A stretch of DNA of 64,000 bases from contig NC_058368.1 in the NCBI RefSeq assembly GCF_018350175.1, positions 27,716,001 through 27,780,000 on the forward strand, in the 5' to 3' direction. Position 1 is the first letter of the stretch. Each line of letters begins with the position of its first letter. Both the position numbers and the translations under genes were made by a program. The DNA is from Felis catus. Taxonomy: Eukaryota. This document shows, in pieces, positions 1,786 to 41,999 of this stretch. Below the pieces are notes generated by a model, which did not search any database, was not told the DNA's origin, and saw only the letters and a list, made by a program, of their open reading frames with translations.

Positions 1786-2600
1786 TGTATAAGTTTCTAT
1801 TGCTACTATAAAATTACCACAAATTCAGTGACTTAAAACAACACTCATTTATTAATTGGCTCTTGGTTCTGTAGGTCAGAAATCCAAGGGAGTTCAGTTG
1901 GGTTCTATGTTCAAGGTCTCACAAGACTAACATCAAGGTGTCCGTCAGGCTAGGCTTTTATCTGGAGGCTCTGGGAAAGAATCTGTTTTGGTCAGGTTGT
2001 TGACAGAATTTAGTTCCTTGTGGTTGTAGGACTGAGGTCCCTGTTTCTTTCTGGCTGTCAGGGCCATTTTCGGCCACTGGAGGCCACCTGCATTCTTCAA
2101 CATATTGTCCCTTCATCTTTACCTTTAAGCCAGCAACATGTCAAACCTTCTTGTGCTTCACATCTTTGACTTCTCTTCTGCTTCCAGCTGAAGAAAACTC
2201 TCTACTTTTAAAGAACTCACCTGGGGCGCCTGGGTGGCGCAGTCGGTTAAGCGTCCGACTTCAGCCAGGTCACGATCTCGCAGTCCGTGAGTTCGAGCCC
2301 CACGTCAGGCTCTGGGCTGATGGCTCAGAGCCTGGAGCCTGTTTCCGATTCTGTGTCTCCCTCTCTCTCTGCCCCTCCCCCGTTCATGCTCTGTCTCTCT
2401 CTGTCCCAAAAATAAATAAACATTGAAAAAAAAAAATTAAAGAACTCACCTGAATAGGCAAGACTTACCTACCTGAAGCATCTGATTTGGGGCTTGAATG
2501 ATATCTGCAAAACCACTTAAGAGCAATACCTACATTAATGTTTGATTGAATAAATGAGAGACAAGAATCTTAGGGAAGCTATCTTTAGAATTCTTTTTTT
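1786..2600 (-). mobile_element. MLT1 (MaLR) LTR interrupted by a SINE
   Basis: Typical MLT1 antisense text (attgct...aaattaccacaaattcagtgacttaaaacaacac...ttctgtaggtcagaaatcc). Ends approximate. Confidence 0.65.
2223..2437 (+). mobile_element. Young felid Can-SINE (SINEC_Fc type)
   Basis: tRNA-derived head, CT-rich segment and A tail. 14-bp TSD taaagaactcacct (2209-2222 / 2438-2451). Confidence 0.95.
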
Positions 2601-2670
2601 TCCCATATTGTTATGGGAATCATGGGAATTAATCCCAATGGATTAAAATATCTGTATGGATGGATATGGA

Positions 2671-2673
<3 letters not shown>

Positions 2674-2709
<36 letters not shown>
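2674..2709. repeat. (TG)n microsatellite; others at ~5040-5111, 8327-8368, 13076-13109, 19281-19318, 35497-35536, 50499-50543 and 58373-58413; (TA)n at 7201-7240 and 11953-11990
   Basis: Directly visible; ends accurate to a few bases. Confidence 0.95.
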
Positions 2710-2711
<2 letters not shown>

Positions 2712-2719
2712 TTCCTATG

Positions 2720-3835
2720 CATGTCTTTGGAAAGAGCTTAGAAACAATGATACCCCAGTAAAAATATATACACCTTGCACTCAAATGGTTTCTAAATATC
2801 ATTCCTCACTAAATGGAGAGAGGGTTTCTTGGATAATTGTATGGTTGAAGCAGGAAAAGTACAAGATAAGCCTGGAACATCTTGTAACAGAAAGTAAGGA
2901 AGTACTCAAAAAATGATGGGGACAGGTCAAAAGTATCAGGAGCCAGCATGAAGGGATTTCTCATTGGCCAAATGTGGCAATCTAAATAAATAATGATAAT
3001 AATGGATTATAACCCATTGAATAAAATAGATACCCATGAGTCCTTATTTGTATAAATGGATATATAAGGGAAAAGAGAAAACTCTTCCTTAAAGCAGAAT
3101 GTCACCTAATAAGTGTTGAAGAGATGACGGAGCCAGAATTAATTTTGCAATCACAAATGATTCAGGAAAAAAATATCAGTGGATGTTAAAACCAGTGTGT
3201 AAAAGTCTGATGAGGAAAGGGATATTTACATAGTCTCAGAGTATCTTCCCACAGATGACAGACCAGTTGCTTATTAATTATTCATTAAGTATACAATGGA
3301 GAAATTGAACATGTACTATTTTCAGCAAATGATAATAGCATGACCAATATTGGAATAAACTGCCATAATACATTTCCCAATCTGATGTACTGAGGAAAAA
3401 AGACAACCTCTGTTGTATTTCTGCCAAAATGCATAGCTTTATTGGAATCTTGAGGAACCATCAGACAAACCTTTGCAAAGAACACTGCAGAATTACTGGC
3501 CTGTACTCTTCAAAAAATGTCAAGGTCACTAGCAACAAGGAAAAATCGGGAACAGGTCTAGCTTGAAAGAGATAAGAGTCACGACAGCTAGATTCTTCTA
3601 GACTGGATCTTTGATCACAAAGAAAGGGGGAATGGGGGAAAACGTTTGCTCTTTGTTTGCTTAGTTATGAAGGATTTTTTGAGGCAAGTGGTAAAATTTA
3701 AGTGGCATATGTGGCCTAGATGGTAGTATGGTATCGATGTTAATTTCATGATTTTTATGTGTATACTATGGTTATGTCGAAAAGTGTCTCCATTTTTAGG
3801 AAATGCATGCTCAAGTATTTACGTGTAATGGGGCT
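2720..3835 (+). mobile_element. Old L1M (L1MC-like) 3' region
   Basis: Degenerate A-rich sequence with motifs typical of old L1 3' UTRs. Subfamily and ends uncertain. Confidence 0.5.
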
Positions 3836-5372: not shown

Positions 5373-6008
5373 AAGAATTCTTATGCAATAGTTCTGAATT
5401 GCTTGCTTGAAATTAAAGATCAAGAAACTAACATTCTTCACAGGTTGTGTCAGGGTAAATAATGAGATAATAAATGGAAAATTTCTTTTTAACCTTGAAC
5501 CTCTCCTGCAGAGAACATTTACATTATCTGTAAAAATGCTACCATCACACTACTGCATGCTTACGATACTATTTATAGATCCAGATTATTGGGTATGCCA
5601 TTGTTAACTTGTTAAGTAATAAGTATAAAAAACAAAAACCTTTATGATTTCCAGTGTGGAAGGATCACATTTGGCCCTGAAGTCATGTAAAAGCAAATGG
5701 GGAAGAGTGGTTGTACACAGAGGGAAACAGGTTCAGAGAGTCGCATAATTCGCTCAAGGTCATGCCGCTTTTAAGAAGAGACAACATGGGGAACTTTTCT
5801 TGTTTAAAATTCCTAAAGTGCCCGTGTCACTCATCTCTTTGGAACACATCCTAGCCAGAAGTAAACACTGGTTTGAAGCAGAGATTGTTGATGGTACCAG
5901 AGAACGAATCCACCTATTACTATCATAACAGAATACTTTTGTTTGCTTCATTTATTTTCCCAGCGGGTTGAACATTCCTCTTGGCATATTCCGTAACTCA
6001 GGAGCATG

Positions 6009-6325
6009 TTTTTTTTTTTAATTTTTTTAATGTTTTTTAATTTACTTTTGAGACAGAGAGAGACAGAGCATGAGCAGGGGAGGGGCAGAGAGAGAGGGAG
6101 ACACAGAATCTGAAGCAGGCTCCAGGCTCTGAGCCGTCAGCACAGAGCCCAACGCGGGGCTAGAACTCATGAACTGCGAGATCATGATCTGAGCCGAAGT
6201 CGATCGCTTAACCGACTGAGCCACTCAGGCGCCCCTTTTTAATTTTGTTTTAATGTTTTTTTTTTTATTTATTTTTGAGACAGAGACAGACAGAGCATGA
6301 GCAGGGGAGGGGCAGAGAGAGAGAG
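6009..6325 (-). mobile_element. Compound Can-SINE: full-length element (to 6235) plus a 5'-truncated element (6236-6325); left anchor of the duplication
   Basis: Both parts lie within one TSD, aggagcatgtttttttt (6000-6016 / 6326-6342). Confidence 0.9.
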
Positions 6326-7197
6326 AGGAGCATGTTTTTTTTCTTGGATTAAATACACCCCCTAAAAGGGAATAACAGCATGATGATGCAAGGCCATTTG
6401 CGTCTGAAAAGCATTGCTGACAAACACAACTAGGAAATACAAAACACTGGTTTTTTTGTTAGGGTCCCGACTTCGTGTCTTGTGGCAGCCTCTGTGTGAA
6501 TATGTGAGGTTTTGAGACCAAATCTACTGGGTTGTTTTAATCTACCTTGAGCAGTAAAGAACCCCTATCTAGTACTGACAGAGTACAAACTGTGCCACTT
6601 CCCGCACATTTTTCTTGTTCTTCCTACTTTACAGCCGTGATAAGTTACTGAATGCACAAGGGAGTATGGCTGATGTGGGCTTGCTCTTCAAAATACTTTT
6701 ATTTCTATAACACTGTGCCACAAAACTCACGTCATCAAGCTGACGTCCCCATATTCCAGCCACAAGAACAGTGTGAGCTTCTCAGGGTCAGCTGCACGGG
6801 GGGGCCAAGCAGAACCCACAGAATCTCTGACAAACAGATTTCCCAGATGTGTGTTCAGAAGGAGTTTTGAAAGCACTGCCGGACCAGAAATTTCTTACGT
6901 CGGTAAACAATGTTTATATCCTTACCTTTTCCACAGTCTCCTAAAAAGTGTCAGGTATTCCATTCATGGAACAGCCTGTGTTTTAGTACACTCTGTGTGC
7001 ATATTTTGTTGTCCTTTGTTCACAGGCCAGCCAATGAGTCTGCTCTATGTGGTACAACACCTACTCTATCACAAACCTCAAAAAAAAAAAAAAAAAACCC
7101 CGAATTGTTGTTCTGCGAGCAGCCAGCACTTAGTCTAGGCCTAATGTTCTGAGAAATGACCTACGGGAAGCAATACAAAATATAAGTTCAAGACTCT

Positions 7198-7257
<60 letters not shown>

Positions 7258-7392
7258 CAGTCTTCTAAGCTCTTGTTTTGTTACAGTTTAGTAACCTCTC
7301 TGTAATGTCCTTCTGGACAAAAAGCAAGCCAAGAGCTGCTCCTAAAGGAGCTGATAAGGATACCTTATGAACTGTAGTGTTGTTTTTCATCC

Positions 7393-7572
7393 ACAGTGCT
7401 GATTCTCAACCTTGGCTGTACATGGGAATCCCTGGCAAGTATGTAAAACCCCCAGTGTCCATGCCATACCCCAGACCAATGAAATTGGAAATCTGGGGTG
7501 GGACCCAAGCCTCAGTGATTCTAAAGCTCTCCAAGTGATTCCAAAGTATAGCCAACATTGAGAACCACTGAG
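7393..7572. mobile_element. MER5-type hAT DNA transposon remnant (second copy ~12142-12321)
   Basis: Terminal inverted repeats cagtg...ttctcaa / ttgagaaccactg, with the internal aagctctccaagtgattc motif. Confidence 0.75.
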
Positions 7573-7909
7573 CTAGAATATAAAGAGTTGGTTCACCAAC
7601 TGCAGTGTTGGTCAACAGCTTTTCCACCTTGTCTGTGATTGTGTTCCTGATCGGACTTGAGTTTCGGAGGTTCGGGTATGTCTGTTTGTTCTTACACTCT
7701 CAGTGTTCACCCCACACCACCAAAACATTGGCCTGACTCGCTAATGCCCACTCCTGGATACCTATACATTCTTACTAACTCATGGGCTTAGATCTGGAGT
7801 AAGCAGGGAGAGAATTCTAGTTCTCCTTCGATATTGATGTTTCTCTTCCATAGTGATAAAATTCCTTCTATAATTTAAAACTAGGGAAAAGGACACCCAA
7901 ATTCTCTTT

Positions 7910-8323
7910 TCTGTTTAAACTCACTTTCTAGGTAGTCTCATCCAACCACTTGACTTTAAAAACATTTCATAAGCTAATGAGTTCCGAACTTGTATCTTTA
8001 GTCTGGACATCTTCCTTGAAACCACACTTGAACTTCAACAGCTTACTCTACTTGGATGTCTAATAGGCTCTTAAAACTCGACATGTCCAAACGTGAGCTC
8101 ATGACAATACCCTTCCTCACCACCAATACCAGAAACACCCGTCTCACAGCCTTCCCTAACTTCATTGATGGTAACTCTATCTTCTAAGGCTGAAAACCTA
8201 CATATCATCCTTGACTCTTTTTCTACAAGTCAAATCCAATCTGTTTCTGTTCATCCTACACTTAAAATCCTGTTCATTATACTTTTAAAATATATCAAGA
8301 ATCTAGGCATTTCTCACCACCTC

Positions 8324-8371
<48 letters not shown>

Positions 8372-8750
8372 ACGTGTGCACATGTGTACATGCCAACATC
8401 ATTTCTTATCTGGATTATTGCAGCTGCCTCTCAACTTGCCTCCCTGTTTCTACTCTTGCTTTCCTTCCTATCTATTCTCAAAATATCGGTGAGAGTGACC
8501 TTGTTAAGACATGCTATATCATGTTACTCCCCTGCACCAAATCCTCCAAATGCTTCCCATTTCATGCAGAGTAAAAGCCAAAAGCTTTACTATGACTTAA
8601 AGGACCCTACATGGTCTGGCCCCATATTAGGCTTTTATCCTCATTTCCTAGTACTCTCTCCTTCTGCTCACATCAAACTTTTTGTTGTTTATCAAAGACA
8701 GACATTCTCTCACTTCAGGATATTTGACTATATTCCATTTGCTCAAGGCT
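7910..8750 (+). mobile_element. L2 LINE remnant containing a (TG)n (second copy ~12660-13490)
   Basis: Degenerate L2 3' text (tctcatcca...ctttaaa...gctaatga, cttggatgtctaatagg, ctggattattgcagc.gcctc). Ends approximate. Confidence 0.7.
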
Positions 8751-9020
8751 GAAATTCAGCTGGGTTTCAACATGGGGCCCTAGGGAATGTTTTTGAACTG
8801 TATTAGCTTTTATTGGGTGGGACACATGCTGTGATTGGTCAGTACCTGTGTCATATTGGTTGTTTAATGTTTTGAGTATCAACACGCTCTTCCTGTACCC
8901 TTGCATCCATGAGATCCCTACTGAGAGGTCACAAGAAGATATTCCCTGGCCACCCTATCTAAAATTTCATACAGATTTTACTTCCCATTCAATTTCCACT
9001 TTAATTTTTCTCCTTGTACT

Positions 9021-10680
9021 TGTATTCGTTGTCCATTGCTGCATCATGTATTACCCCCAACATATAGTGGCTTAAAAAAAACATTCAGTATGTGTTTCCC
9101 CCAACAGTTTCTGGAAGGCAGAAATTCAGGAGCAGCTTGGCTGTGTGGTTCGTGTTCACGTTGCACCAAGATGTCAGCTAGAGTTAGGGTCATCGTGATA
9201 GGGGCTGGAGGTTACACCAGATGGTCGCCTTCAAAGTTGGAGGAAACTACTTAAGGGCAAGAATAGCAGAACACAAGAATCATTAGAGGCCACCTTGGAG
9301 ACCAGCTACCACAATACGACCACTGGTCCCCACAGGTTCACATGCAAGTTATCCTCATCTCCTCCCAAGACCCCCTCCCCCCAAGTCTCATGCCATTACA
9401 GCATCAGCTCAAAATCTAGACTCTTGTTATCTAAAGCAAGTCTGGTGCAGGTGAGACTCCACACATGTAGTTCTTGCGTATAGCTCATCCAGTATGGTTT
9501 CTCTTGACCTGAGACCTGTGAAGTAAAGGGTCAAGTTATCTGCTTCCAACGTATCCCACATAAAGTGGTAGGATGTGCATAGGATAACCAGTATAGGTGT
9601 TTATTCAAAGGGGGAAAATGGGAGGAAGTTGGTGCCATTGGGCTATAGCGATTTTAAAATCCAGCAAGATAGGGGTTGGTACTTCCTTGATTAGGACTCA
9701 AGGCATGAGAATAATTGTTTGTGGCATTTGGCTACACATTGTGGGCTTTAAGTTCTGCCCTTTGAGTTATGTTTCCTTTTCCATGAAAAACAACCCATGT
9801 ATGTGGTTGCTGGTGTTCCCCGCCTGATCTCTGTCATAATGAGACTTTTCATTTCATCATGAATCTGTCCCTTTCAGTCCAAACTGGTGGTATTTCTGAA
9901 AATACAATTGTCCTAAAAAGTCTGAGGGGTTTTTTATAAATCTTACTTGGGCTTATCCCATTGGACAAAAACCATATCTTGTCTTCTGTCTTCTTTGGTC
10001 TTCTGCCAGACTGTTAAAGGACAACATTTTTAAGCTTCTGAAAGTTTTATTCTTTGACTGAATGGTTCCTTGAGATATTTATTTCCTTGGATCGTTCTGA
10101 TGTCTTCTTAACGAAGGAATTAATAGCCACTCTCGCATTTTCCACTTTAAATCAGGCTTTCATGATGGTTCTCTGATTTGATCTCTTCCTGGAGCCAATT
10201 CTTAACCTTAGCATAGTTTGCCATTTACAGAGGTTGAGAACTACCAAAATCAGCAATTCCTAGCTCCTTTTTGGGCAATAACCTTTCATTTAGGTTATCT
10301 CTATCTTCCCACATCTTACTATAAGCAGCAAGAATGAATCAGGCAGGACCTTCCACATTCTGCCTGGCTATCTCCTTACCCAGCTCACTTAGGTCATTAG
10401 GTACCTTTGCTTCCCACGTCACCACAGGTAACGGTGCTGCTATCTAACACCAAATAACAGGGACCCCTTCTATAATGTTCCTAAACTTGTGCCAGCATTG
10501 TCCTCAAAGACTTTCCAGCTCCTGCCCTCAGACCAGTTCTGAAGCCAAGCCCATGTTTTCATTTTAGACTGCACCACACTTCCAGGTGCTATAATCTATA
10601 AGTTGTTTCCTGCTGCATTACAATTTATCCCAAATTTGGGGTAGGAAGCGAGAATCACTGGAGGCTGGCTTGAAATCTGA
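9021..10680. mobile_element. Old MaLR (MLT1 LTR fragments plus probable internal sequence; second copy ~13762-15420)
   Basis: MLT1-like ends (attgctgc...attacccc.aac.tagtggcttaaaa) bracket internal-like sequence. Subfamily unsure. Confidence 0.5.
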
Positions 10681-10774
10681 TTACCTCAGTATTTAACAGT
10701 ATCTAACACATTACATATTTTACTTACTTGCTTTGTGAGTTGCCCATCTAGAATGAAAGAATGTGGCAGAGGGA

Positions 10775-10987
10775 TTTTTTTTTTAATGTTTATCTATTTT
10801 AGAGACAGAGAGAGACAGAGCATGAGCAGGGGAGGGGCAGAGAGAGAGGGAGACACAGAATCTGAAGCAGGCTCCAGGCTCTGAGCCGTCAGCACAGAGC
10901 CCAACGCGGGGCTAGAACTCATGAACTGCGAGATCATGATCTGAGCCGAAGTCGATCGCTTAACCGACTGAGCCACTCAGGCGCCCC
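10775..10987 (-). mobile_element. Chimeric Can-SINE at the duplication junction
   Basis: Its left part and flank equal the SINE at 15515; its right part and flank equal the SINE at 6009. The TSDs on its two sides do not match each other. Confidence 0.93.
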
Positions 10988-11949
10988 TTTTTAATTTTGT
11001 TTTAATGTTTTTTTTTTTATTTATTTTTGAGACAGAGACAGACAGAGCATGAGCAGGGGAGGGGCAGAGAGAGAGAGAGGAGCATGTTTTTTTTCTTGGA
11101 TTAAATACACCCCCTAAAAGGGAATAACAGCATGATGATGCAAGGCCATTTGCGTCTGAAAAGCATTGCTGACAAACACAACTAGGAAATACAAAACACT
11201 GGTTTTTTTGTTAGGGTCCCGACTTCGTGTCTTGTGGCAGCCTCTGTGTGAATATGTGAGGTTTTGAGACCAAATCTACTGGGTTGTTTTAATCTACCTT
11301 GAGCAGTAAAGAACCCCTATCTAGTACTGACAGAGTACAAACTGTGCCACTTCCCGCACATTTTTCTTGTTCTTCCTACTTTACAGCCGTGATAAGTTAC
11401 TGAATGCACAAGGGAGTATGGCTGATGTGGGCTTGCTCTTCAAAATACTTTTATTTCTATAACACTGTGCCACAAAACTCACGTCATCAAGCTGACGTCC
11501 CCATATTCCAGCCACAAGAACAGTGTGAGCTTCTCAGGGTCAGCTGCACGGGGGGGCCAAGCAGAACCCACAGAATCTCTGACAAACAGATTTCCCAGAT
11601 GTGTGTTCAGAAGGAGTTTTGAAAGCACTGCCGGACCAGAAATTTCTTACGTCGGTAAACAATGTTTATATCCTTACCTTTTCCACAGTCTCCTAAAAAG
11701 TGTCAGGTATTCCATTCATGGAACAGCCTGTGTTTTAGTACACTCTGTGTGCATATTTTGTTGTCCTTTGTTCACAGGCCAGCCAATGAGTCTGCTCTAT
11801 GTGGTACAACACCTACTCTATCACAAACCTCAAAAAAAAAAAAAAAAAACCCCGAATTGTTGTTCTGCGAGCAGCCAGCACTTAGTCTAGGCCTAATGTT
11901 CTGAGAAATGACCTACGGGAAGCAATACAAAATATAAGTTCAAGACTCT

Positions 11950-12006
<57 letters not shown>

Positions 12007-13072
12007 CAGTCTTCTAAGCTCTTGTTTTGTTACAGTTTAGTAACCTCTCTGTAATGTCCTTCTGGACAAAAAGCAAGCCAAGAGCTGCTCCTAAAGGAGC
12101 TGATAAGGATACCTTATGAACTGTAGTGTTGTTTTTCATCCACAGTGCTGATTCTCAACCTTGGCTGTACATGGGAATCCCTGGCAAGTATGTAAAACCC
12201 CCAGTGTCCATGCCATACCCCAGACCAATGAAATTGGAAATCTGGGGTGGGACCCAAGCCTCAGTGATTCTAAAGCTCTCCAAGTGATTCCAAAGTATAG
12301 CCAACATTGAGAACCACTGAGCTAGAATATAAAGAGTTGGTTCACCAACTGCAGTGTTGGTCAACAGCTTTTCCACCTTGTCTGTGATTGTGTTCCTGAT
12401 CGGACTTGAGTTTCGGAGGTTCGGGTATGTCTGTTTGTTCTTACACTCTCAGTGTTCACCCCACACCACCAAAACATTGGCCTGACTCGCTAATGCCCAC
12501 TCCTGGATACCTATACATTCTTACTAACTCATGGGCTTAGATCTGGAGTAAGCAGGGAGAGAATTCTAGTTCTCCTTCGATATTGATGTTTCTCTTCCAT
12601 AGTGATAAAATTCCTTCTATAATTTAAAACTAGGGAAAAGGACACCCAAATTCTCTTTTCTGTTTAAACTCACTTTCTAGGTAGTCTCATCCAACCACTT
12701 GACTTTAAAAACATTTCATAAGCTAATGAGTTCCGAACTTGTATCTTTAGTCTGGACATCTTCCTTGAAACCACACTTGAACTTCAACAGCTTACTCTAC
12801 TTGGATGTCTAATAGGCTCTTAAAACTCGACATGTCCAAACGTGAGCTCATGACAATACCCTTCCTCACCACCAATACCAGAAACACCCGTCTCACAGCC
12901 TTCCCTAACTTCATTGATGGTAACTCTATCTTCTAAGGCTGAAAACCTACATATCATCCTTGACTCTTTTTCTACAAGTCAAATCCAATCTGTTTCTGTT
13001 CATCCTACACTTAAAATCCTGTTCATTATACTTTTAAAATATATCAAGAATCTAGGCATTTCTCACCACCTC

Positions 13073-13112
<40 letters not shown>

Positions 13113-15541
13113 ACGTGTGCACATGTGTACATGCCAACATCATTTCTTATCTGGATTATTGCAGCTGCCTCTCAACTTGCCTCCCTGTTTCTACTCTTGC
13201 TTTCCTTCCTATCTATTCTCAAAATATCGGTGAGAGTGACCTTGTTAAGACATGCTATATCATGTTACTCCCCTGCACCAAATCCTCCAAATGCTTCCCA
13301 TTTCATGCAGAGTAAAAGCCAAAAGCTTTACTATGACTTAAAGGACCCTACATGGTCTGGCCCCATATTAGGCTTTTATCCTCATTTCCTAGTACTCTCT
13401 CCTTCTGCTCACATCAAACTTTTTGTTGTTTATCAAAGACAGACATTCTCTCACTTCAGGATATTTGACTATATTCCATTTGCTCAAGGCTGAAATTCAG
13501 CTGGGTTTCAACATGGGGCCCTAGGGAATGTTTTTGAACTGTATTAGCTTTTATTGGGTGGGACACATGCTGTGATTGGTCAGTACCTGTGTCATATTGG
13601 TTGTTTAATGTTTTGAGTATCAACACGCTCTTCCTGTACCCTTGCATCCATGAGATCCCTACTGAGAGGTCACAAGAAGATATTCCCTGGCCACCCTATC
13701 TAAAATTTCATACAGATTTTACTTCCCATTCAATTTCCACTTTAATTTTTCTCCTTGTACTTGTATTCGTTGTCCATTGCTGCATCATGTATTACCCCCA
13801 ACATATAGTGGCTTAAAAAAAACATTCAGTATGTGTTTCCCCCAACAGTTTCTGGAAGGCAGAAATTCAGGAGCAGCTTGGCTGTGTGGTTCGTGTTCAC
13901 GTTGCACCAAGATGTCAGCTAGAGTTAGGGTCATCGTGATAGGGGCTGGAGGTTACACCAGATGGTCGCCTTCAAAGTTGGAGGAAACTACTTAAGGGCA
14001 AGAATAGCAGAACACAAGAATCATTAGAGGCCACCTTGGAGACCAGCTACCACAATACGACCACTGGTCCCCACAGGTTCACATGCAAGTTATCCTCATC
14101 TCCTCCCAAGACCCCCTCCCCCCAAGTCTCATGCCATTACAGCATCAGCTCAAAATCTAGACTCTTGTTATCTAAAGCAAGTCTGGTGCAGGTGAGACTC
14201 CACACATGTAGTTCTTGCGTATAGCTCATCCAGTATGGTTTCTCTTGACCTGAGACCTGTGAAGTAAAGGGTCAAGTTATCTGCTTCCAACGTATCCCAC
14301 ATAAAGTGGTAGGATGTGCATAGGATAACCAGTATAGGTGTTTATTCAAAGGGGGAAAATGGGAGGAAGTTGGTGCCATTGGGCTATAGCGATTTTAAAA
14401 TCCAGCAAGATAGGGGTTGGTACTTCCTTGATTAGGACTCAAGGCATGAGAATAATTGTTTGTGGCATTTGGCTACACATTGTGGGCTTTAAGTTCTGCC
14501 CTTTGAGTTATGTTTCCTTTTCCATGAAAAACAACCCATGTATGTGGTTGCTGGTGTTCCCCGCCTGATCTCTGTCATAATGAGACTTTTCATTTCATCA
14601 TGAATCTGTCCCTTTCAGTCCAAACTGGTGGTATTTCTGAAAATACAATTGTCCTAAAAAGTCTGAGGGGTTTTTTATAAATCTTACTTGGGCTTATCCC
14701 ATTGGACAAAAACCATATCTTGTCTTCTGTCTTCTTTGGTCTTCTGCCAGACTGTTAAAGGACAACATTTTTAAGCTTCTGAAAGTTTTATTCTTTGACT
14801 GAATGGTTCCTTGAGATATTTATTTCCTTGGATCGTTCTGATGTCTTCTTAACGAAGGAATTAATAGCCACTCTCGCATTTTCCACTTTAAATCAGGCTT
14901 TCATGATGGTTCTCTGATTTGATCTCTTCCTGGAGCCAATTCTTAACCTTAGCATAGTTTGCCATTTACAGAGGTTGAGAACTACCAAAATCAGCAATTC
15001 CTAGCTCCTTTTTGGGCAATAACCTTTCATTTAGGTTATCTCTATCTTCCCACATCTTACTATAAGCAGCAAGAATGAATCAGGCAGGACCTTCCACATT
15101 CTGCCTGGCTATCTCCTTACCCAGCTCACTTAGGTCATTAGGTACCTTTGCTTCCCACGTCACCACAGGTAACGGTGCTGCTATCTAACACCAAATAACA
15201 GGGACCCCTTCTATAATGTTCCTAAACTTGTGCCAGCATTGTCCTCAAAGACTTTCCAGCTCCTGCCCTCAGACCAGTTCTGAAGCCAAGCCCATGTTTT
15301 CATTTTAGACTGCACCACACTTCCAGGTGCTATAATCTATAAGTTGTTTCCTGCTGCATTACAATTTATCCCAAATTTGGGGTAGGAAGCGAGAATCACT
15401 GGAGGCTGGCTTGAAATCTGATTACCTCAGTATTTAACAGTATCTAACACATTACATATTTTACTTACTTGCTTTGTGAGTTGCCCATCTAGAATGAAAG
15501 AATGTGGCAGAGGGATTTTTTTTTAATGTTTATCTATTTTA
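10802..15541 (+). repeat. Tandem segmental duplication, copy 2 (4740 bp)
   Basis: The only differences I saw from copy 1 are length changes in (TA)n/poly-T (3 bp), (TG)n (8 bp) and a poly-T run (1 bp). Confidence 0.97.
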
Positions 15542-15726
15542 GAGACAGAGAGAGACAGAGCATGAGCAGGGGAGGGGCAGAGAGAGAGGGAGACACAGAA
15601 TCGGAAGCAGGCTCCAGGCTCTGAGCTGTCAGCACAGAGCCCGATGCGGGGCCAGAACTCACAAACTGCGAGATCATGACATGAACCAAAGTTGGACACC
15701 TAACCAACTGAGCCACGCAGGTGCCC
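15515..15726 (-). mobile_element. Can-SINE, right anchor of the duplication, inserted in an L2 3' end
   Basis: TSD gagggattttt (15510-15520 / 15728-15738). Confidence 0.93.
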
Positions 15727-16774
15727 TGAGGGATTTTTGTTGGGTTTATCCACTACTGTAGCCTCAGTGTCTGGTTTATACTAGATACTCAAGAAATGTG
15801 TGTTAGGTGACTAAAGTAAGACTACACTTCCTGGCCTTTCTTGTAACTAGGTGTAGCTGTGCAGCTAAATTTGACCAGTGAAGTGTGAGCAAAAGTGATG
15901 AGTACAATCTCTGGGTTGTACACCTAGAGGTAAACTCGCCCTGCAGTTTCCCTTTCTCCCTCCTCACTGGCTGGATTATTTATGCATTTGATGTAGATAA
16001 GGGAAGCACCCGAGAGAAGACAGAGCAACACAATAGAAGCCTGGACCCTTGACACCATAGTAAGTAACACCATCACTGTGCCAGCCCTGGCCTGCGTGTG
16101 CTGAGACGAGCACCTAAGAGACAATTTCTAAGCTGCTAAATCACAGTTATTTTGAGTCTCGACCATTGCGGCTGAACCTGTAGTTTAATCTAGGTGACAT
16201 GAGTGAGAGGGGCTGGATAGAAACACCATCATGCCTGAAAAGAGCTTGAGGAAGTTAGAGAAATGGCCAACTAGCCCTTTAGGACGACGACTATAGAACT
16301 TCTCATATGTAGTATTACACTGTAGGAATATACCACCATTTATTTGTCGGTTATCTTGTCTTTGCCTTATTTCGCGTAGTTTTCTGGTTTAGTTAAGATA
16401 TAATTGATATCCGTCGCTGTATAAGTTCAAAGTATACAGCAGGATGGTTTGATTTACAATCCATCTACTATTGATAGGTATGTAAATAGTTTGTGTTTTA
16501 AACTCTGATGAATCATGCTTGTACTGGACTTGGTGAGCACATGAACAGTGGAATGTCTAGGTATGAAAATACTCGGCCTCAGAAGGTTCTGCCAATTTTC
16601 CAAAAAGGCACTAATTTACCAGTCCTCTAGTGGAGCACCAGAATTTCAGTTTCCCATCCTGACGCATGGTAGCTTTTTTTTTTTCATTTTAGTAATTCTG
16701 TTGAGTGTATAGAGGTATCTCATTGTAATTTCAGTTTGCATATCCATATATTTACTAGCCATTTGGCTGTCTTC

Positions 16775-16975
16775 TTTTTTTTTTTTTGAAGTTTATTTAC
16801 TTATTTTGAGGAGGCGGGAGGGGCAGAGAGAGAAAGAGAGAGAGAGAATTCCAAGTAGGCTCTGTGCTGTCAGCGCGGAGCCCAACGTGGGGCTTGAACC
16901 CACGAACCCAGAGATCATGACCTGAACCCAAACCAAGAGTTGGAGGCTTAACTGACTGAGCCACCCAGGTGCTCC
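16775..16975 (-). mobile_element. Can-SINE
   Basis: Poly-T, GA-rich segment and reverse-complement tRNA head. Confidence 0.88.
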
Positions 16976-19276
16976 TGCAAATTTAAATAGTATTGATCAC
17001 TGTATTTATTGAGGATACCATGTTGGATACACGGTACTGAGCACTTTATGCTTACCTAACATGTATGACAACTATCTTCAGTAGGTTTAGAACTCATTCC
17101 ATTCTATAGTTGAAAAAACTGAAGCCCTGAGATGTTCAGTGGTTCACCCAAAGTCTCTCGTGTTATAAGTAGTGGAGACAAGATCTAAACACAGGTCGAT
17201 CTGACAAAGCCCGAAGCGTGCATGCTGAACCCTTGTTGAATAACACGGGATTCACTCCCTTTCTTCAGACTGCATGAAACTTCATTATTGTAACCATTTT
17301 CATCACCCTCCCTTTGTCAGAGATTGTTTTACTGGAGCTCCAAAAGAGAAGCCATATAGTTGGGAGGCTGCTGAGGACTACTCAGGAGAGTCTTGAACTC
17401 TAGCCGCTGTGGTATGCCTGCAGGGAATTCCTACCCCACATCGCGCTCTTGGAAGCCTGCAAGGCCAAGGGAATTTCTAACATGACTCCTTTCTACAAGT
17501 AAAGCAAAATAGGAGGATCCTAAGTTTTACCCATAGAAATGGAACTCTTGTTGGCTGCCAGAAGATATTAGGGATGGAATACTGCCCCAGAATGTCTACA
17601 GAGTGCTCAGGGCCTTCCAGTTATGCCAACAGAATTCCAGCTTCACTGGGGACTGTACTCCTGTGACAGGCGTTTATCTAGTGGTAGGTAAAACTATATA
17701 CTGCTTTATTTCTATTCTGAAAGGGATTTCAAGATAAAACACACTGAGGATATAGCTCTATGAGGTTTTAGCAATTGAAAGCTGGGAGCTGGTAGAACCA
17801 AAGTTAAGGACTCTTTGAGGACAAATTTAAGTATTATTGGAAAACATATATAAAGTGCTTGCATGGACAGCTCAAAAAAAGCCACAACACGATCTTCCAT
17901 TTATATGGCATCAAGGTGCAATTGGCGAACCACTTCCACAAATGTTATCTCATTTGGCCTTCACAAAGCCCCGAAGGTAGATTGGACAGCTGGTCTTATT
18001 ATGATTAATATTTCATCTTACAAATGAAGCAACCAAAGCTCAGAGAGTTTCAGAGTTTGCCTGAGGTCACAGAATTCTTAAATGGCTCTGCCGGGTCTCA
18101 AGTTCAGGTCTTTCTGCCCTTTGCCCCTATGCCATACTCTCTGTTACATACCTGGCTATACTTACAAAGGATGTGAATACCCACAGGAGTTGGCTAGGAG
18201 TTAAGACATCAGGACAGTCAGAAGTTCCCTAAGAGAGGGCATTTTTGGAAAAGGCATAGTGGTGGGGTTTAAAATGGGTAGTGCTATGGAAAGTTTCTGT
18301 TTGGTTCATTTATCATGGCTAAAGAAACTCTTCAGGGGAATTTCTCTCCCATGCCACTGACAGAGTCTTCAGAACTTTCCCCAGTGAAGGGAAATTTCTT
18401 TCATCCCTGTAGCCAGCAGAGGTCTGGTGACAGCTACCATACAGTGTGACAACTCAGAGATGGAAGCCATTACGCTTTCCTCAGATATGAATTTATAAAC
18501 AAAGAAATGCAGCCACCTTCCGGAAGATCGCAAATATTATTAAAAGCACATTTCTCCTCATTTCCCCAAGTGACAGTATTCATTGTCATCAGAAAAACAG
18601 AGCGAACAAATGTACATCTTTCCGTTTCTACACTATGAAGCTCACTATTTTAACACAGTTAAAGAAGAGGAATTCTAACCCAAATTTAGCATGTTTTCTA
18701 TTCACAAAAATTTGACATGTTGTACAAAGCACTGTCTATTGTAAAGATTATTTGACCACATAATTATAGGGATGAATGTTGGAGTGCAACGGTTTTTATT
18801 AATGTTGATTCTAATAGGTTTACAGACTTTGCCATAACCGTTCTGGGAAATAATACAAAGCTGCTCATGGGGAAATTATAACAAATGAAAAGCATTCCAA
18901 ATTCTGGATTTTGTCAAAAGATATATATTGTCACAATCATCTTCCAAAATGTAGAAAGCTCTATGTGGACTCAGAAGACCTAAATTCGGTTCTGCCACAA
19001 AGTTGTCACACAATCCTGGAAGTCACTTGACTTCTCTAAGTCTCTGTTTCCTTCTGTCTAAAATGAGGTGATCTTAATCAAGGGGTTAGCATAAGAAGGT
19101 TCTTTCTGTTCCCCACTGTAGCTGCTGGGTCTGATGGAGTGAATGGTCTGTGCTTATTATTAATAAATATTTATTGCCTGAACTTAAGGTGACTTATAAT
19201 TGTAGCATTCCATGATTTATGGCATACATTTAAAGAATTTCTAAAGAATGTGATATTGCCACAAATATGCTCTTAT

Positions 19277-19325
<49 letters not shown>

Positions 19326-19488
19326 GGAGTGCCTAGTAAAGTAGTCACTGATTCACGTAGATCCTTTGTTGGAAGAGAGAAATCAAATCTTTAACTGCTG
19401 TCCTCACCCTACTGGATTAATCTAACATTTCACTGCAGAATCAAATTTAAGGAAGCATGACTTTTTGGAATTTTCAGAAATTAAGATT

Positions 19489-19524
19489 CTTTCCTTCCTT
19501 CCTCCCTCCCTCCCTCCCTCCCTC

Positions 19525-19604
<80 letters not shown>

Positions 19605-19709
19605 TCTTTCAGTAGGCTTCATGCCCAACACAGAGCCCAGTGTAGAGCTTGAACTCAGGACCTTGAAATCAAGACCTGAGCTGAGATCAAGAGTCCACCC
19701 AGGTACCCC
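19489..19709 (-). mobile_element. Older, internally deleted Can-SINE whose tail became (TTTC)n/(CCCT)n
   Basis: SINE core at 19610-19709. Degenerate TSD agaaattaagatt / agaaactaagatt. Confidence 0.75.
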
Positions 19710-21145
19710 TAGAAACTAAGATTTTCACTGAGACATTTTATGACAAGAAACAGCTGAGAATCTATGTCTGTATTTATTCACACTAATGAGAGAGTAATCG
19801 AAGGCAACTAATTTAAAAACCAGATATGTATCTTCATTTAGATCCTTGGAAGATAAAAGACATACTTGGATATGTTAGCATAAGCCCAAATTGGTGAAGT
19901 TTCTTTTTGATTTCATCTTATCTTTAATCTTATCCCAGCACGCTGGGCTAAAACTGCTCATTGTAGCCTTGAATTGCCATTTCCTATCAATGTCTCATTT
20001 TACAACGTTTTCCTTTGTGTATCCTTTTGAATCCTCTTTTTCTTTCCACTTTAGCTTCCCTCTTCCCCAACCAAAATATCTTTTGCTTAGATTAAACTCC
20101 TTTACCTAAGGAATGAATAAATGATTATTTTCCGGATGCAGTTACGTTTTAAAAGAAAGCCATTTCCTAAGGGAATCTTTAATTGGCCAAATTTCAGGCC
20201 ATTTAACAATCTCCCTAGATTTCAGGTAATCCCCCTTGTCCCTTAAAATATACAGGTAATTGTCTAGTACAATGATTCCTTGAACTTTCAAAGCCATGGA
20301 GCTCTTACTCAAACAAAATCAGGTAGCAATCCAGTAAATAGAAGAGATAAGGGCTGAGGCAGGGGTGGGGATCCAGAATCTTCTCCACTCTCCCTATTTC
20401 TCTCCACTAGCCATTGCTGCAGAGGCACACATCTCTGAGCAACCCTAGTAAAAGGCCAGCCCATATCTTCACACAAATACACAGACACATAAGGTGAAAA
20501 AATATGTGATATGCAAATAGATAACCCACTCTCAAGTATCTTAAAGGAGCCTCTAATGTCTACTGCAATAGTAAACCACATTCACATTTTTTAACACTTT
20601 AGGAATGTAGCAAAATGACAAATGAACAGAATAAGCAATCTAGATTTTGCCTATTATCCTCTATTTCTATTTCATGTTTGCAACTTGGGTGTGCTACGCG
20701 GTTGGGTTTTAAAATAAATACGGTCAACCGAGTGTATTCCTTGAAGTCAGCGTTACTCGTACTAGTTCCTTTAGAAGAACTGATTTTCCTTTATTCAAAC
20801 TTTGAATTGAATCCAATCACCAAAACAACTTCTTTCTTATCCTCTGAAATAAAAGTTCCAGTGGTATTTTCCCAGCAGTTGGCAATTTGAAGAAAATTGC
20901 CTCCAGGAAGATCACCCAGATCCACTTTTGGGGGGACTCTGGAACTGCTTTTCTCACCCTACAGGCACCTACAACCTGGAAGTTCCCCAATCAAAGTCTT
21001 TCACCCTTGCCAGAAACCTGTCCCTCCTCTTGGTTACTGATGAATGGTTCCGCTTTCCTCCTATACACAAAGCTAAAACCTTACAGTTACCATCAAACAG
21101 CAACCATTAAGTTACTGGGACTCTAAGCTAGGCATATTACCTAGA

Positions 21146-21367
21146 TCAGGATTTTCCAACCTCAGCACTATTGACTTTTTGGGCAGGATGATTCTCTGTT
21201 CTGGGAGGCTGCCCAGTCCATTACAGTATATTTAGCAGCATCCCTGGCCTCTACCCACTAGATGCCAGTAGACATACCCCTCTCCCCCTTCTAGGCTTCA
21301 CAAAAAATGTCTCCAGGCATCGTCAAATGTCTGCTGGAGGCAAAATCAACTGCATTTGAGAAGTGTT
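21146..21367. mobile_element. MER20 DNA transposon remnant
   Basis: caacctcagcactattgac.tttt.ggc and tttagcagcatccctggcctctacccactagatgccagtag are MER20 hallmarks. Confidence 0.85.
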
Positions 21368-22718
21368 GATGTGGATTGTCTCTTTATTCCTCACAGTATC
21401 CCACAAGGTACATATTGTAACTTCATTCCACATAATGCAGATCAGGAAACTGGGCCTCTAGGGAATTGAGTGACTTGTCCTTGGTCATGGGGCCGGTATG
21501 TGGCAGAGCTGGGTTTCAGAGTACTGTACAAACTGTCTCCCCATCTGTCCCATTTGCTACCTCTGGAGCTCAGGTCCCTTCTGCATCTAATTTTTTTTTT
21601 TTTTTTTTTTAATCCAACTATGTTAACCTTTCATTTGGAACGTCACGGGTTTTGTCCCCTCCTTCCTACTTCCCATGCTGTTGCCTTAGCTCAGATTTCC
21701 CACCTAGATTATAATAACTAGGCTTTTAGTTTCTCTCTCAGATTTCAGCCTCTTCGTTTTTCAATCTGTCTTTCACATTGCTGATAGAACTTTCTCAAAC
21801 ATATTATTACACAACTGCCCTAGGGAAAAACCTTCTGTGCCTCCCACGTTGCCCACAGCAGGGTTCTCGAAAGGTGGTCCCAAACCAGCCCCATGGGTAT
21901 CTCTAGGAAACTTGTTAGAAATGCAAATTCTTGGGCAAGCTGAGGGCTAGGCAGCAATGATTCTCCAGGCAGCCTTGCTCAGTAATTGATCAAACATTCA
22001 AGAAGTATTAGTTTCATACCCGGTCTGTGCAAGACATTGGGCAATGGTTCGACTATGGAATGGAGATTTTTTTCCTTCCAAATTTGGACTTGCAAGACTC
22101 TGTATCTGTAGGTCTGGGGGGTGAGTCTCAGCATCCATATTTTTAGAAAGCTCCCAGACGATTCTGATGTGTAGTGGGTTGATCGTGACTGTCCTAATGC
22201 TGGCTATACAAAAATGAGAGAGATCTCTTTCCTCCCATAACCTATGTGGTAGGAGACACGTAAGCAAACGCTAATGCCGCCATCATAAATAACAAGAGCT
22301 TGCTTCCCCTCTTTTGGGCTTTCTTTGGCTTTTGATTTCACTTTTGGCTTTTGATTCCACTTCACATTTCCTTTAACTTGAATGTATGTGCACAACAACG
22401 TAAGGCAAAATTTTGTTCAGATGATTTTATTTATTCACCTAATCTCTGGCGTTCCAAGGTTAATCTATTGTTCAGGGTCTCAAATTTCCAGCAGTAACCT
22501 CAAATTAGGGGTTACCTATTACACAGCCCTAAAGTACCTTTGAGGGTTCTAGTCCCCTTGCGGCTACCACAGGTCTCTTCATTATCCTCTAAGGTGTCTT
22601 GGAGACCTTGAACCAGCACGGGTAGGGGCGGAGCAGGCTCACTTCTCCCCGCCAGGGCGGCGCAGCGAGAGCCTTCACCCGCGCTGAGGTCAGAGGGCGC
22701 CCGAGTGGAGCCCGAATG

Positions 22719-22728
22719 GGGAAGTCCC
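22719..22728 (-). promoter_or_regulatory. NF-kB site (GGGACTTCCC on the minus strand)
   Basis: Fits GGGRNWYYCC; 30 bp upstream of the ISRE with a GC box between them. Confidence 0.6.
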
Positions 22729-22758
22729 CCGGGGGCGGGCGCACCTGCCGCCGCTGGC

Positions 22759-22772
22759 GGGAAATCGAAACT
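22759..22772 (+). promoter_or_regulatory. ISRE (GGGAAATCGAAACT), ISGF3/IRF site
   Basis: Matches the ISRE consensus GAAANNGAAACT and lies ~115 bp upstream of the ATG of a known interferon-stimulated gene. Confidence 0.8.
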
Positions 22773-22885
22773 CAAGCTGTTGAAACCGCTGCCCCTGCCC
22801 TTTCGAATCTCATCTCGAGACTCCCGAGGCGCCCCAGCCCGCGTCCCCGCCGCAGCGGCGGCCGGGCACCCGCGGACTCAGAGCT

Positions 22886-23064
22886 ATGTTCACCCGCACT
22901 CGGGTGGTGGGCTCCGGGCTCGGCGCCCCCCCCGCCCCCCGCCCGGCCCGGGAGCCCCCCGGGCGGCCTCGGGAGCCGGGCCAGCTGCAAGGTCCCAGAC
23001 CGGGTTCGCAGGCGACCCCCCAGAGCCCTTCGCAGGAGAGCCCACGGCTCGCCGGCCAGCGGTG
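22886..23064 (+). CDS. EPSTI1: EPSTI1 coding exon 1 (MFTRTRVVGSGLGAPPAPRPAREP...PSQESPRLAGQR, ends phase 2)
   Basis: ATG at 22886 (G at -3) inside a CpG island. The translation resembles the human EPSTI1 N-terminus as I recall it (MNTRNRVVNSGLGASP...AGQRR). Consensus donor TG|GTAAGT at 23064/23065; the frame continues into exon 2. Confidence 0.93.
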
Positions 23065-24914
23065 GTAAGTACTTAACAACCCGGCTTGGGGGCGGGAGCC
23101 CAGACCTCAGACAGACTCGGCGAGCACTTTCTTGATCATCGGAGTTTGAAACCACGGGGGCCCAGTAGCGGGGTTTCTGAGAGAGTGCAGGCTCGTTTGC
23201 CTACCCAAAAGCTTTCAGGAATTATTACCTTATAAATTGAGTGTGCCAGTCTGCGGTTCTTTGCTAAATAACAGCTCTCGTTCCTTTCAAGAACATTGCG
23301 ATTCTCGTGGCTGGCTACAGGATTGAAAAGACGTGTGGAGAACTCGCCTGAGCGTCCTACGAACTTTACAGGTGTCTCCAGAACTCCTACTCTTTAGCAT
23401 GAATTATTGTTTTCCTTCCTGGTTTAAACCATCGATGCCCTTAAGTGGTGTCTCCGCGTCAGCTGCCGGGGCAAGGGCGGAGAGGGAATGTGTTATGGGG
23501 TAGATGCTCCAAATGCTGGCTCTGGGAGCACGCTTGCATCTCAACCAAGTTCCCAGATAAATGACCTCTTAGGACCAGAGGAGTGGGACCGGGTGAGGTC
23601 GAGAGTGGCCGCAGGGTTTCCTGTCATATAGGTAACCTTGACCTTGGTCTTTGGTTCAGAGTCTACAGTTGGTACCCTGAAAACGTTTGTTACCCCGCGT
23701 CAGTAATCCTCGCTTTCCTCCCAATGGAAGGAGCTTCTTTAACAGGATAGTATGGCTACACAGGGCTCCGGAAGTGCTGCTTCTGTGCATTGGAATCCTC
23801 TGAATAGTTTCATTTTCAGTTCCCCCCTTTCCATCAACTTGTCGCACAAAAGACCTGCTGGTTGCCAAGGAACAGTATATCACCATATGACCCGTAAACA
23901 GTAACTTTTCTTTTATCCCTTAACTTTGAAAGAAGTCATGAGTACTGGGCTTTTGATATTATTCCACTTAGGGTTGCCCTTAGATGGGGTGGGTGACCCG
24001 GGTGGTTGCAGTCAGAGATTGCCGCATTTGTCACCTTTGCGGAATGAGAGGTGTCTTACTACGATAGAGGTTCATTAAATTCAAGTAATCTCAGTAAGCT
24101 GTAGCATTTAATGTAGCAGAGGTCATGGGCATACAGTCTCAGGTTGATGATGAACACCCTTTACGTGCCTTTTTGTTGTTAAAGTTAGCATCTAGTTAGA
24201 TACAATCATTTATTTGCAAGCTCATATCATCTCATAAATATTAGCATTTGCATCTATCTGTTTTTTCTTTTTCTTTTTTCTTTCTTTTTTTTTTTTTTTT
24301 TTTTTTTTGGCTGTCAACATCCCCAGAATCTTGCTGGACCAAATTGCTCGGAAAGGGGCGGTTTTCTAATTCATTGTCCAGGCCTCAATACCTGAAGACC
24401 TCACTGCATACTATTTTGTGATTTTTAAGATTTGCCGATAGACCATTAGAGAGTACATGGGAGAGTTGGCTTTCACAGAGCTCTTTTATTTTTAAAAAAT
24501 GCGAACCGGTTGCAGTAAGTAGAACGTTATAAGAGTCATTCCCTTTTAGGTGTTCAGTAGAGGAGATCCTGTTTGGACCACTCCGAATTCTTACATCTCC
24601 ATTAGTCACTTCTATTGTTTATTCTCACTTGTATCCTTTAATGGAACTGGAAAACCAAGGAAAATGGTTGAATGGTAAATAATATCTTAGTAAAATGCAC
24701 ACACAAACCCTAAAAGAGGGCTTTATTCTTTTTTTTTTTTTTTTTTTTTGGAGCGGAATTATAGCATTTTCTGGTGGGAAGTAGAGAAAAAGGAAGAAGT
24801 GCTTAATAAGCTTCATTTGTTCATTCTCAATATGCGCTTATTTACATGACAAAGGATTGGGATTTCGCCTTGTATTGTGCACATCTTTCCATTAATTCCT
24901 TAGGGAAGTGCCAG

Positions 24915-39946: not shown

Positions 39947-40005
39947 CACAGGCGCATATACCTTGATAACACCAAATGAAAACCGAAGAAATCAGATACA
40001 AAGGA
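39947..40005 (+). CDS. EPSTI1: EPSTI1 coding exon 2 (59 bp; (C)TGAYTLITPNENRRNQIQR)
   Basis: Polypyrimidine tract plus ttccag| acceptor and A|gtatgt donor. Phases 2 in and 1 out match the neighbouring exons. Resembles recalled human TSAYTLIAPNINRRNEIQR. Confidence 0.93.
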
Positions 40006-40769
40006 GTATGTATATTTATTCATTTAACATTCAGAATGCTTCTCATCTTAGAGAGTAGGATTGATTTACTTTGGTGTATAGTTTTATTTTCTGGTACGAA
40101 TAGACTCACCACATCTTACAGAGTTTTTTCTTTTTTTAACTTTAGCAGCTTTAATTATAGCTTTTAAAATTATTCTATTGTTAATCCTTCTAAATTAGTT
40201 TCTCTATGTTAATAGCAGAACTCATAGCACAATGGCAAATCTCAGATTTCTGTTGGACTTAAACAATTTCACATCTATTGCCAATAAATTATCTAGTTCC
40301 CATGAAATTGGGTTGACTGCAGATATTTTTACAGGACTATGAATACTTGCAGAGCAGATGAGTTATATATGAAACAGATCATGACATAATCTGTCCCCTT
40401 CTTGATCTGTCCTGTCCCATCCCTTCTTAATGGAATTTTTCTTTAACCTCTGTGCTCCCATAATTTTGCAAGTATCAGAGTCTGCCCTCAGCTGTTTTTA
40501 TTTGAGAGCGTCCATTTCCTTGTTCTAGATTACAACCTCTTTGAGGGCAGGGACTACACTTTACTCATTTTTGCCCTCCTTGTACCTAGTGGGTGCAGAG
40601 CCTGTTTGAAGTTGTACCGTAAAATAAATGCTGCCATTTAAATTACAGCATTATAACTTAGAGGTAGATGGAGAACTCAAGTTCAACCAGTTCACAAAGA
40701 AGTTATGAGGCCTGTTCAATTCAAGCTGTGGGGCTAGCGCTGACATTCTGTGCTCTCGTGTATTAGATC

Positions 40770-41458: not shown

Positions 41459-41999
41459 TGCAGAGTGTGTTATTTGGGCAGTGAGCACTGCTCCACCTAG
41501 AGGAGGCTTTCCTGCCTGGTGGAATGGAGTGCAAGGGGCTGGAGCCCTCACTCCTAGTTGCGGTAAGCTTGGGGGACGTTTGAAACACAGTGCCGTGGGC
41601 ATCAGAATTCTCTGGGGCTTTGTTTACTGTGTGCAAAGAGTTCTTACTGACATACGAATATTCTAGTTTTGTACACACTCTCTATAGAAAATTCAAAAAG
41701 CTAATTGGATCTAGGGTTTTAAAAATGCCAGAATGAGAGGAAAAACAAAACTCCTTTATTTTAGTAAGAGGTCAGGATTTTCCAAATTTGGACTTTCAGT
41801 TCATACTCTTGGAGAGAGAGAGAGAGCGCCTCAGGGGTGGGCGCAGCGTCGCCCCAAAGGGTGCCTTCCTTTCCTGGCTATTTTGTGCACTCATGCTTGC
41901 AGGGAGTTAATTGCCCTCTGGTGCTTGTTTCTTGTGCTATCAACGGAACTGTTTTCACACTCTAATCATCGATGATTTGACATTTCTCACCTGGCTTAG

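Follow-up and report, generated by a model that had tools for sequence, protein, structure and literature searches.

A probable recent tandem duplication between same-orientation CanSINEs upstream of EPSTI1 in the cat genome assembly

In the cat assembly, the intergenic region between DNAJC15 and EPSTI1 carries a noncoding unit of about 4.75 kb twice in tandem, the two copies meeting at a hybrid SINE. Judging from the sequence, this arrangement is probably a real and evolutionarily very young tandem duplication that arose by homologous recombination between two CanSINEs lying in the same orientation. The 64-kb stretch of DNA analyzed here (the window) shows directly how the junction is built, how alike the copies are, and which genes lie alongside.

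The original prediction described a near-perfect tandem duplication of ~4.75 kb and proposed self-alignment as a check. Self-comparison of the window recovered one long direct repeat, which pairs 6022–10986 with 10778–15726 at 99.2% identity over 4,965 columns and is the sole pair of at least 300 bp with at least 93% identity across the 64 kb. Counted from the start of a block shared by the bounding SINEs, and delimited by self-comparison and alignment, copy A of the unit spans 6050–10801 (4,752 bp) and copy B spans 10802–15541 (4,740 bp), both on the plus strand. Base-by-base alignment of 6050–10862 with 10802–15602 gave no substitutions over ~4,800 aligned positions, which bears out the predicted duplication and agrees with its description as very recent; all of the substitutions in the longer repeat pair are confined to its SINE ends. 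The copies differ solely in length, by 12 bases spread over three alignment gaps, of 3 bp (7239–7241) in an (AT)n/T run, 8 bp (8327–8334) in a (TG)n run, and 1 bp (10775) in a poly-T tail. In copy A, (AT)21 leads into 17 consecutive T's (7200–7257), and the other microsatellite is (TG)21 (8327–8368); the counterparts in copy B are (AT)20 with 16 T's (11952–12006) and (TG)17 (13076–13109). A 701-base probe from the unit found two full-length matches in the whole 2.43-Gb assembly, both at this locus, and nine other matches of at most 77 bases each; the unit is present in just these two places. A 47-base pattern from the flank to the left of the two rightward SINEs had no matches in metagenome contigs, a result without bearing either way.

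With gene conversion ignored, an upper bound of about 36,000 generations on its age would make the event recent, and it presumably took place in the germ line. Homogenization of the copies by conversion or exchange would make the missing substitutions understate that age, and the duplication might then be old and perhaps fixed, its identity having been kept by gene conversion or by repeated unequal exchange. Gene conversion acts readily on tandem copies that share kilobases of identity, and the microsatellites of the two copies are up to four repeat units apart, a divergence that needs some time or a multistep slip. Against such a history, conversion would need to have spanned all 4.8 kb together with both halves of the hybrid SINE and to have left zero differences behind, and we regard an old duplication as very unlikely.

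The copies of the probably young duplication are bounded by three SINEs (L, M, and R from left to right) which, as predicted, share one orientation: in a three-SINE alignment all lie on the minus strand, with heads to the right and tails to the left. The left parental CanSINE, L (6010–6235), is full length by alignment and sequence, with an A/T-rich tail at 6010–6049, then an AG/CT-rich region, and a head end at 6235. It appears to be nested in the tail of an older, 5′-truncated SINE fragment, also on the minus strand (6236–6328; tail plus AG-rich part), of which 6236–6327 matches 6015–6100 at 89% in the self-comparison; GGAGCATG plus the T run after it (6001–6016) is repeated at 6329–6344 and resembles an outer target-site duplication. 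The target-site duplication of L itself, which sits inside this older tail, is A/T-rich and less clear. The right parental CanSINE, R (15515–15727), is older and more decayed than L, shares 87.8% identity with it over 213 columns, and is flanked by an 11-bp target-site duplication, GAGGGATTTTT, at 15510–15520 and 15728–15738.

The duplication junction is the hybrid SINE M (10775–10987), which is of R type at 10775–10801 and of L type at 10863–10987, with a block common to all three elements between them. Its left flank comes from R and its right flank from L, and the sequence gagggattttt...atctatttta was found to the left of both M and R, as had been claimed; because the flanks have these different sources, M lacks matching target-site duplications. 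An independent SINE insertion at this position was considered and excluded, since the flanks of M copy the left flank of R and the right flank of L. The common block, which had been put forward as the interval of the switch, is 61 bp long and identical in L (6050–6110), M (10802–10862), and R (15542–15602); no other perfect match between L and R is as long, the runner-up being 23 bp. Immediately to its left, L has T where M and R have A, and immediately to its right, L and M have T where R has G. To the left of the block M equals R at every informative base, and to the right it equals L at 20 of 20 informative SINE sites; four bases named earlier as diagnostic of L (6111 T, 6135 C, 6151 A, and 6161 T) are present, and M equals L at each. 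The hybrid therefore contains a single switch, in register and with no mosaic patches. A 31-letter word unique to the junction is impossible because the shared block is 61 bp long.

Taken together, the in-register hybrid SINE, its switch point in the longest tract of identity, and its lack of matching target-site duplications make up the signature of unequal homologous recombination that the original prediction had recognized here. We suggest that two direct CanSINEs, 4.75 kb apart and with ~88% identity, paired out of register, either on sister chromatids or on homologues, and that the exchange was resolved within their longest stretch of perfect identity. One product would have been L, unit, hybrid M, unit, R, which is the allele in the assembly, and the reciprocal product would lack the unit. 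A real duplication could also have been produced by a replicative template switch (of the FoSTeS/MMBIR type) or by other homology-guided repair between the SINEs, and a simple tandem duplication ends with the same sequence by either route. Error-prone break-induced replication often leaves inserted bases or nearby point changes. Here there are no inserted bases, the sole difference close to the junction is a single T of a poly-T run, and the junction identity is the longest tract available, all of which speak against a template switch and lead us to consider it quite unlikely, even though the human literature keeps both routes open and reports many Alu junctions with too little homology (median, 15 bp) for classical nonallelic homologous recombination (NAHR) (PMC9675761).

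Assignment of L, M, and R to the CanSINEs rests on their layout and on primer matches. CanSINEs are described as ~250 bp long, with a head derived from an RNA gene, a region of dinucleotide repeats, and a tail of poly A or A/T (PMC4084570), and the three elements fit this layout, being 213 to 226 bp long and reading on the plus strand as T-rich tail, (AG)n, and body. L matches a published feliform CanSINE primer, TCCGACTTCGGCTCAGGTC, at 6186–6204 on the minus strand with three mismatches (chance expectation, 0), and M also matches it with three mismatches; eight more sites in the window match with one to three mismatches (0 expected by chance), and R has no match at three or fewer. The 12-kb stretch 10802–22800 has 19,328 candidate matches genome-wide and, among the scored matches listed, nearly all lie on its SINE parts. 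ARAGORN found no tRNA genes in 5900–16000, and Rfam gave no tRNA match there at E values up to 1, with subthreshold matches only, on the (TG)n run. Missing tRNA matches are unsurprising for decayed SINE heads and were not counted against CanSINE membership.

The same structure could be a false duplication, a single unit between L and R having been laid down twice by the assembler, by gap closing, or by polishing, either through traverse of a graph loop via the 61-bp word common to L and R or through stacking of contig ends or haplotypes. Zero substitutions separate the copies, and all of their differences fall in homopolymers and microsatellites, which are where long-read consensus errors fall, so that these differences do not prove two separate pieces of DNA. 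The junction lies within a 61-bp word that is exact in both SINEs, and a graph assembler walking the loop twice would give the same sequence; published long-read vertebrate assemblies retain 0.3 to 2.3% false duplication, mostly on the same scaffold (PMC9516828). Four marks of false duplication have been published (PMC9516828), of which two were examined here, namely, a gap between the copies and haplotype-type substitutions, and both are absent, which counts against an artifact. The 64-kb window and the 40 kb to its left contain no N, and this lack of an assembly gap within 46 kb likewise argues against a false duplication. The assembly comprises 71 records for 2.43 Gb, which points to long reads, and such reads would cover the 9.7-kb structure from end to end; the overlaps accepted by assemblers of long reads should be far longer than a 61-bp word or than 213 bp at 88% identity, and exact SINE register is not expected of stacked contig ends. 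The locus resembles the "homotype" class of false duplications in having near-identical adjacent copies on one scaffold with no substitutions, but unlike false duplications the cat copies have no gap between them and their junction joins two different SINEs in exact homologous register (PMC9516828). Overall, we consider an assembly artifact unlikely and continue to favor a real duplication by recombination between CanSINEs.

Gene order on cat chromosome A1 is ENOX1, DNAJC15, EPSTI1, FAM216B (PMC10969784), and the available sections of that paper describe no variant at the DNAJC15-EPSTI1 locus. The downstream neighbor of the duplication is EPSTI1, on the plus strand, with the coding part of exon 1 at 22886–23062 (59 of 59 residues agree with those of proteins named EPSTI1 from Felis catus and Prionailurus bengalensis) and later exons at approximately 39948–40055, 41999–42085, 44080–44178, 44815–44898, and 55006–55077. 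From 15602 to the EPSTI1 start codon (22886) is 7,284 bases, in line with the predicted distance of ~7.3 kb. EPSTI1 is interferon induced, and an ISRE-like motif on the plus strand, GAAATCGAAACT at 22761–22772, 114 to 125 bases upstream of the start codon, fits with that induction; the motif falls outside the duplication, and the whole window has three matches to it versus 0.67 expected, a count reached in 5 of 100 shuffles.

Within the unit itself there is nothing that ties it to interferon control. It holds no strict ISRE and no NF-kB motifs, and its counts of relaxed ISRE (1 versus 0.34 expected), GAS (TTCYNRGAA; 1 versus 0.36 expected), and TTCNNNGAA (4 versus 1.42 expected) do not amount to an enrichment worth claiming. 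A Pfam scan of 9 of the 12 stop-to-stop frames of at least 70 aa in the unit returned no families, and the CpG observed/expected ratio is low, at 0.22. The unit is noncoding DNA and carries no gene, nothing found points to a biological effect of the duplication, and we infer that it is a duplication without known function. Tandem copies with 4.7 kb of perfect identity should make further unequal exchange, to one or three copies, far easier than the initial event was. A stronger proposal would be that the locus is a multiallelic copy number variant of one, two, three, or more units with unequal exchange ongoing, and that it alters interferon-induced EPSTI1 expression among cats through the spacing or dose of an unrecognized regulatory element lying between the divergent promoters of DNAJC15 and EPSTI1; we find this extremely unlikely.

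Duplications of this kind are common in cats and humans, and the present one is an unremarkable instance of a familiar class. As in human Alu/Alu- and other transposable element (TE)-mediated rearrangements, both breakpoints lie in direct SINEs of the same family, with an in-register hybrid SINE and a switch located in perfectly identical sequence; the cat duplication also has a size within the human TE-mediated range of 93 to 25,425 bp (PMC9675761). Of the deletions and duplications in that human TE-mediated set, 91% have direct-orientation elements at their junctions (PMC9675761). The cat case differs in that its elements are tRNA-derived carnivore SINEs whereas human Alus are 7SL derived, in that its 61 bp of junction identity far exceed the median of 15 bp for human Alus, and in being a duplication, the rarer outcome in three human genomes, where duplications account for 33 of 493 TE-mediated rearrangements (PMC9675761). 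In 54 cats, 9,022 duplications were called, with a mean of 7,497 bp and ~2-fold enrichment within 5 kb of genes (PMC7581003), and the present duplication is like those in that catalogue of structural variants in being of kilobase scale and near a gene. Neither EPSTI1 nor DNAJC15 occurs by name in files 1 to 12 of the 16 supplementary files of that study (PMC7581003), an absence of little weight, since an intergenic call would not appear there under a gene name. The dog tandem-duplication papers that we checked do not describe a SINE-mediated junction.

Short reads mapped to this assembly would align to multiple places over 9.5 kb, and a false deletion may be called in animals that have one unit. 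If the duplication is real, it would be a neat case of repeat-mediated duplication in a carnivore, with unusually long junction identity, and a possible genotyping marker, and it would mark a site prone to more copy number change beside an interferon-induced gene.

Comparison of the window with itself revealed a direct repeat (6022-10986 against 10778-15726; 99.2% identity over 4,965 columns), which is the only self-match of at least 300 bp at 93% identity or more in the whole 64 kb. In a base-by-base alignment, all substitutions of this pair lie in its SINE ends, and there are none between the first copy (6050-10862) and the second (10802-15602). Three alignment gaps separate the copies, one of 3 bp (7239-7241), one of 8 bp (8327-8334), and one of a single base (10775). 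In sequence they read as four slippage-type length differences: (AT)21 versus (AT)20, an adjoining T run of 17 versus 16, (TG)21 versus (TG)17, and a SINE poly-T of 10 versus 9. Beyond the SINEs, the flanks of the two copies show no relation to each other. Apart from nine matches of at most 77 bases, a 701-base probe from the duplicated unit of about 4.75 kb matched only the two window copies in the 2.43-Gb assembly. The duplication observed in the original prediction is confirmed, as is every coordinate and diagnostic base cited for it.

The copies are bounded by three CanSINEs in the same orientation, placed on the minus strand by a three-SINE alignment at 6010-6235 (L, the left parental element), 10775-10987 (M, the hybrid at the junction), and 15515-15727 (R, the right parental element). 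A 61-base block is identical in all three (6050-6110, 10802-10862, and 15542-15602); it is the longest perfect tract shared by L and R, followed by tracts of 23, 16, and 15 bp. Directly left of the block, M matches R and differs from L at all informative bases, M and R alike differ from L by 13 bp in tail length, and M bears the unique left flank of R. Right of the block the pattern reverses: at all 20 informative SINE sites, M has the base of L and not that of R, and it then runs on into the right flank of L. Two copies of an 11-bp target-site duplication, GAGGGATTTTT, flank R (15510-15520 and 15728-15738); of these, M has just the left one and therefore no matching target-site pair. This anatomy supports the SINE-SINE recombination first proposed from the sequence alone: R on one chromatid would mispair with L on the other, and exchange inside the 61-bp tract would yield exactly L, unit, M, unit, and R. 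Because the switch in M is single and clean, with no inserted bases or nearby point changes, high-fidelity homologous recombination fits better than error-prone replicative repair. The human survey in PMC9675761 leaves both routes open; given the clean junction, replicative repair or another homology-guided route is improbable here, and a real duplication made by crossing-over is the probable origin.

According to PMC4084570, a CanSINE is about 250 bp long and combines an RNA-gene-derived part, in which the Pol III boxes lie, with a stretch of dinucleotide repeats and a tail of poly A or A/T, the whole being flanked by target-site duplications. This layout is present in L, M, and R. The CanSINE primer given there matches L and M with three mismatches each and eight further window sites with one to three mismatches (0 expected by chance); it has no match in R, which is too decayed. 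The heads of L, M, and R are not recognized by tRNA finders, which does not count against CanSINE membership. For the 12-kb stretch 10802-22800, the assembly yields 19,328 candidate matches; among those listed, nearly all scored ones sit on SINE parts. L itself lies within the A/T-rich tail of a 5′-truncated, older SINE (6236-6328). The composite is framed by 'GGAGCATG' plus a T run at 6001-6016 and again at 6329-6344, resembling an outer target-site duplication; the composite at 6001-6344 thus appears to be a nested insertion of L into the older element.

A false duplication of a single unit during assembly would account for two copies whose only differences sit where consensus errors fall, and an assembly graph loop walked twice would also put the junction in the shared 61-bp word; such errors persist at 0.3 to 2.3% in long-read vertebrate assemblies according to PMC9516828. 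Among the four marks of false duplication listed in that source (gap, haplotype-type differences, depth, and discordant read pairs), a gap is absent, since neither the window nor the adjacent 40 kb on its left contains an N, and haplotype-type differences are absent, with no substitutions. The assembly comprises 71 records for 2.43 Gb, which suggests long reads able to span the 9.7-kb structure. Moreover, a junction in exact register within two different SINEs is a trace of recombination, which stacked contig ends would not give. Metagenome contigs scanned for the M/R flank gave no match, which has no bearing on either reading. An artefact is unlikely, and the indirect evidence makes a real duplication, by all routes together, very probable.

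Gene conversion would lower the apparent age of the copies, and an old duplication with homogenized copies takes a small share of the probability. The absence of substitutions over 4,801 aligned bases supports the very recent origin originally suggested; at the cat mutation rate of 0.86e-8 per base per generation, with parents aged 3.8 years on average (10.1101/2021.04.06.438608), and with gene conversion ignored, the 95% upper bound is about 36,000 generations, which corresponds to about 138,000 years.

Downstream, a 60-aa frame (22886-23065) is 100% identical, across 98% of its length, to database proteins named EPSTI1 from Felis catus and Prionailurus bengalensis and 92 to 98% identical to proteins of other felids. 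With tblastn, 59 of 59 residues of the first exon of EPSTI1 were placed at 22886-23062, and additional plus-strand exons follow it; these matches mark the genome as that of a felid. From 15602 to the start codon is a distance of 7,284 bases, in agreement with the predicted 7.3 kb. Outside the window, about 6.5 to 7.5 kb to the left of its first base, a CpG-island-like stretch (2501-3500 of the adjoining sequence, L012) is overlapped by a minus-strand frame starting MAAGGGVAPAGEGLRYAEY (L012 2761-3063), which we take to resemble the N terminus, or exon 1, of DNAJC15. The gene order DNAJC15, EPSTI1 appears in a table of PMC10969784. The two would then be divergent neighbors about 30 kb apart, and the duplication would therefore lie within their intergenic region. 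Separately, 18206-19074 (about 870 bases) has 94% identity to a site on a different assembly record (C27), and the 124 bases next to it (19059-19182) align at 90%; 18206-19182 is presumably a fairly young interspersed repeat.

Strict ISRE-like motifs (GAAANNGAAAST) number three in the window versus 0.67 expected: at 22761-22772, which is 114 to 125 bases before the EPSTI1 start codon; at 15945-15956, about 220 bases right of R and just outside the duplication; and at 23806-23817. The unit contains no strict ISRE, and its relaxed ISRE, GAS, and NF-kB motifs are at about chance level. Its CpG observed/expected ratio is 0.22, none of the 9 stop-to-stop frames scanned, out of its 12 of at least 70 aa, matched a Pfam family, and no RNA family reached threshold. 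Rfam matches of the (TG)n runs at 8328-8398 and 13075-13139 to mir-297 (42.8 and 33.5 bits versus a gathering score of 90) are a low-complexity effect and no gene. The unit bears no mark of function.

By its tested features, the event belongs to the transposable-element-mediated rearrangements. In three human genomes, PMC9675761 reports 493 such events, 33 of them duplications, with sizes of 93 to 25,425 bp, same-orientation elements at the junctions of 91% of deletions and duplications, and a median Alu junction homology of 15 bp; the cat case is set apart only by its family of SINE and by a tract of junction identity that is rather long. Among 54 cats, PMC7581003 reports 9,022 duplications averaging 7,497 bp, about twofold enriched within 5 kb of genes. 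We found no such variant under the names EPSTI1 or DNAJC15 in 12 of the 16 supplement files of that paper and no report of this duplication among the papers covered on EPSTI1 copy number in the cat. The duplication is an ordinary example of an already known class, and a variant so young would likely still segregate in cats.
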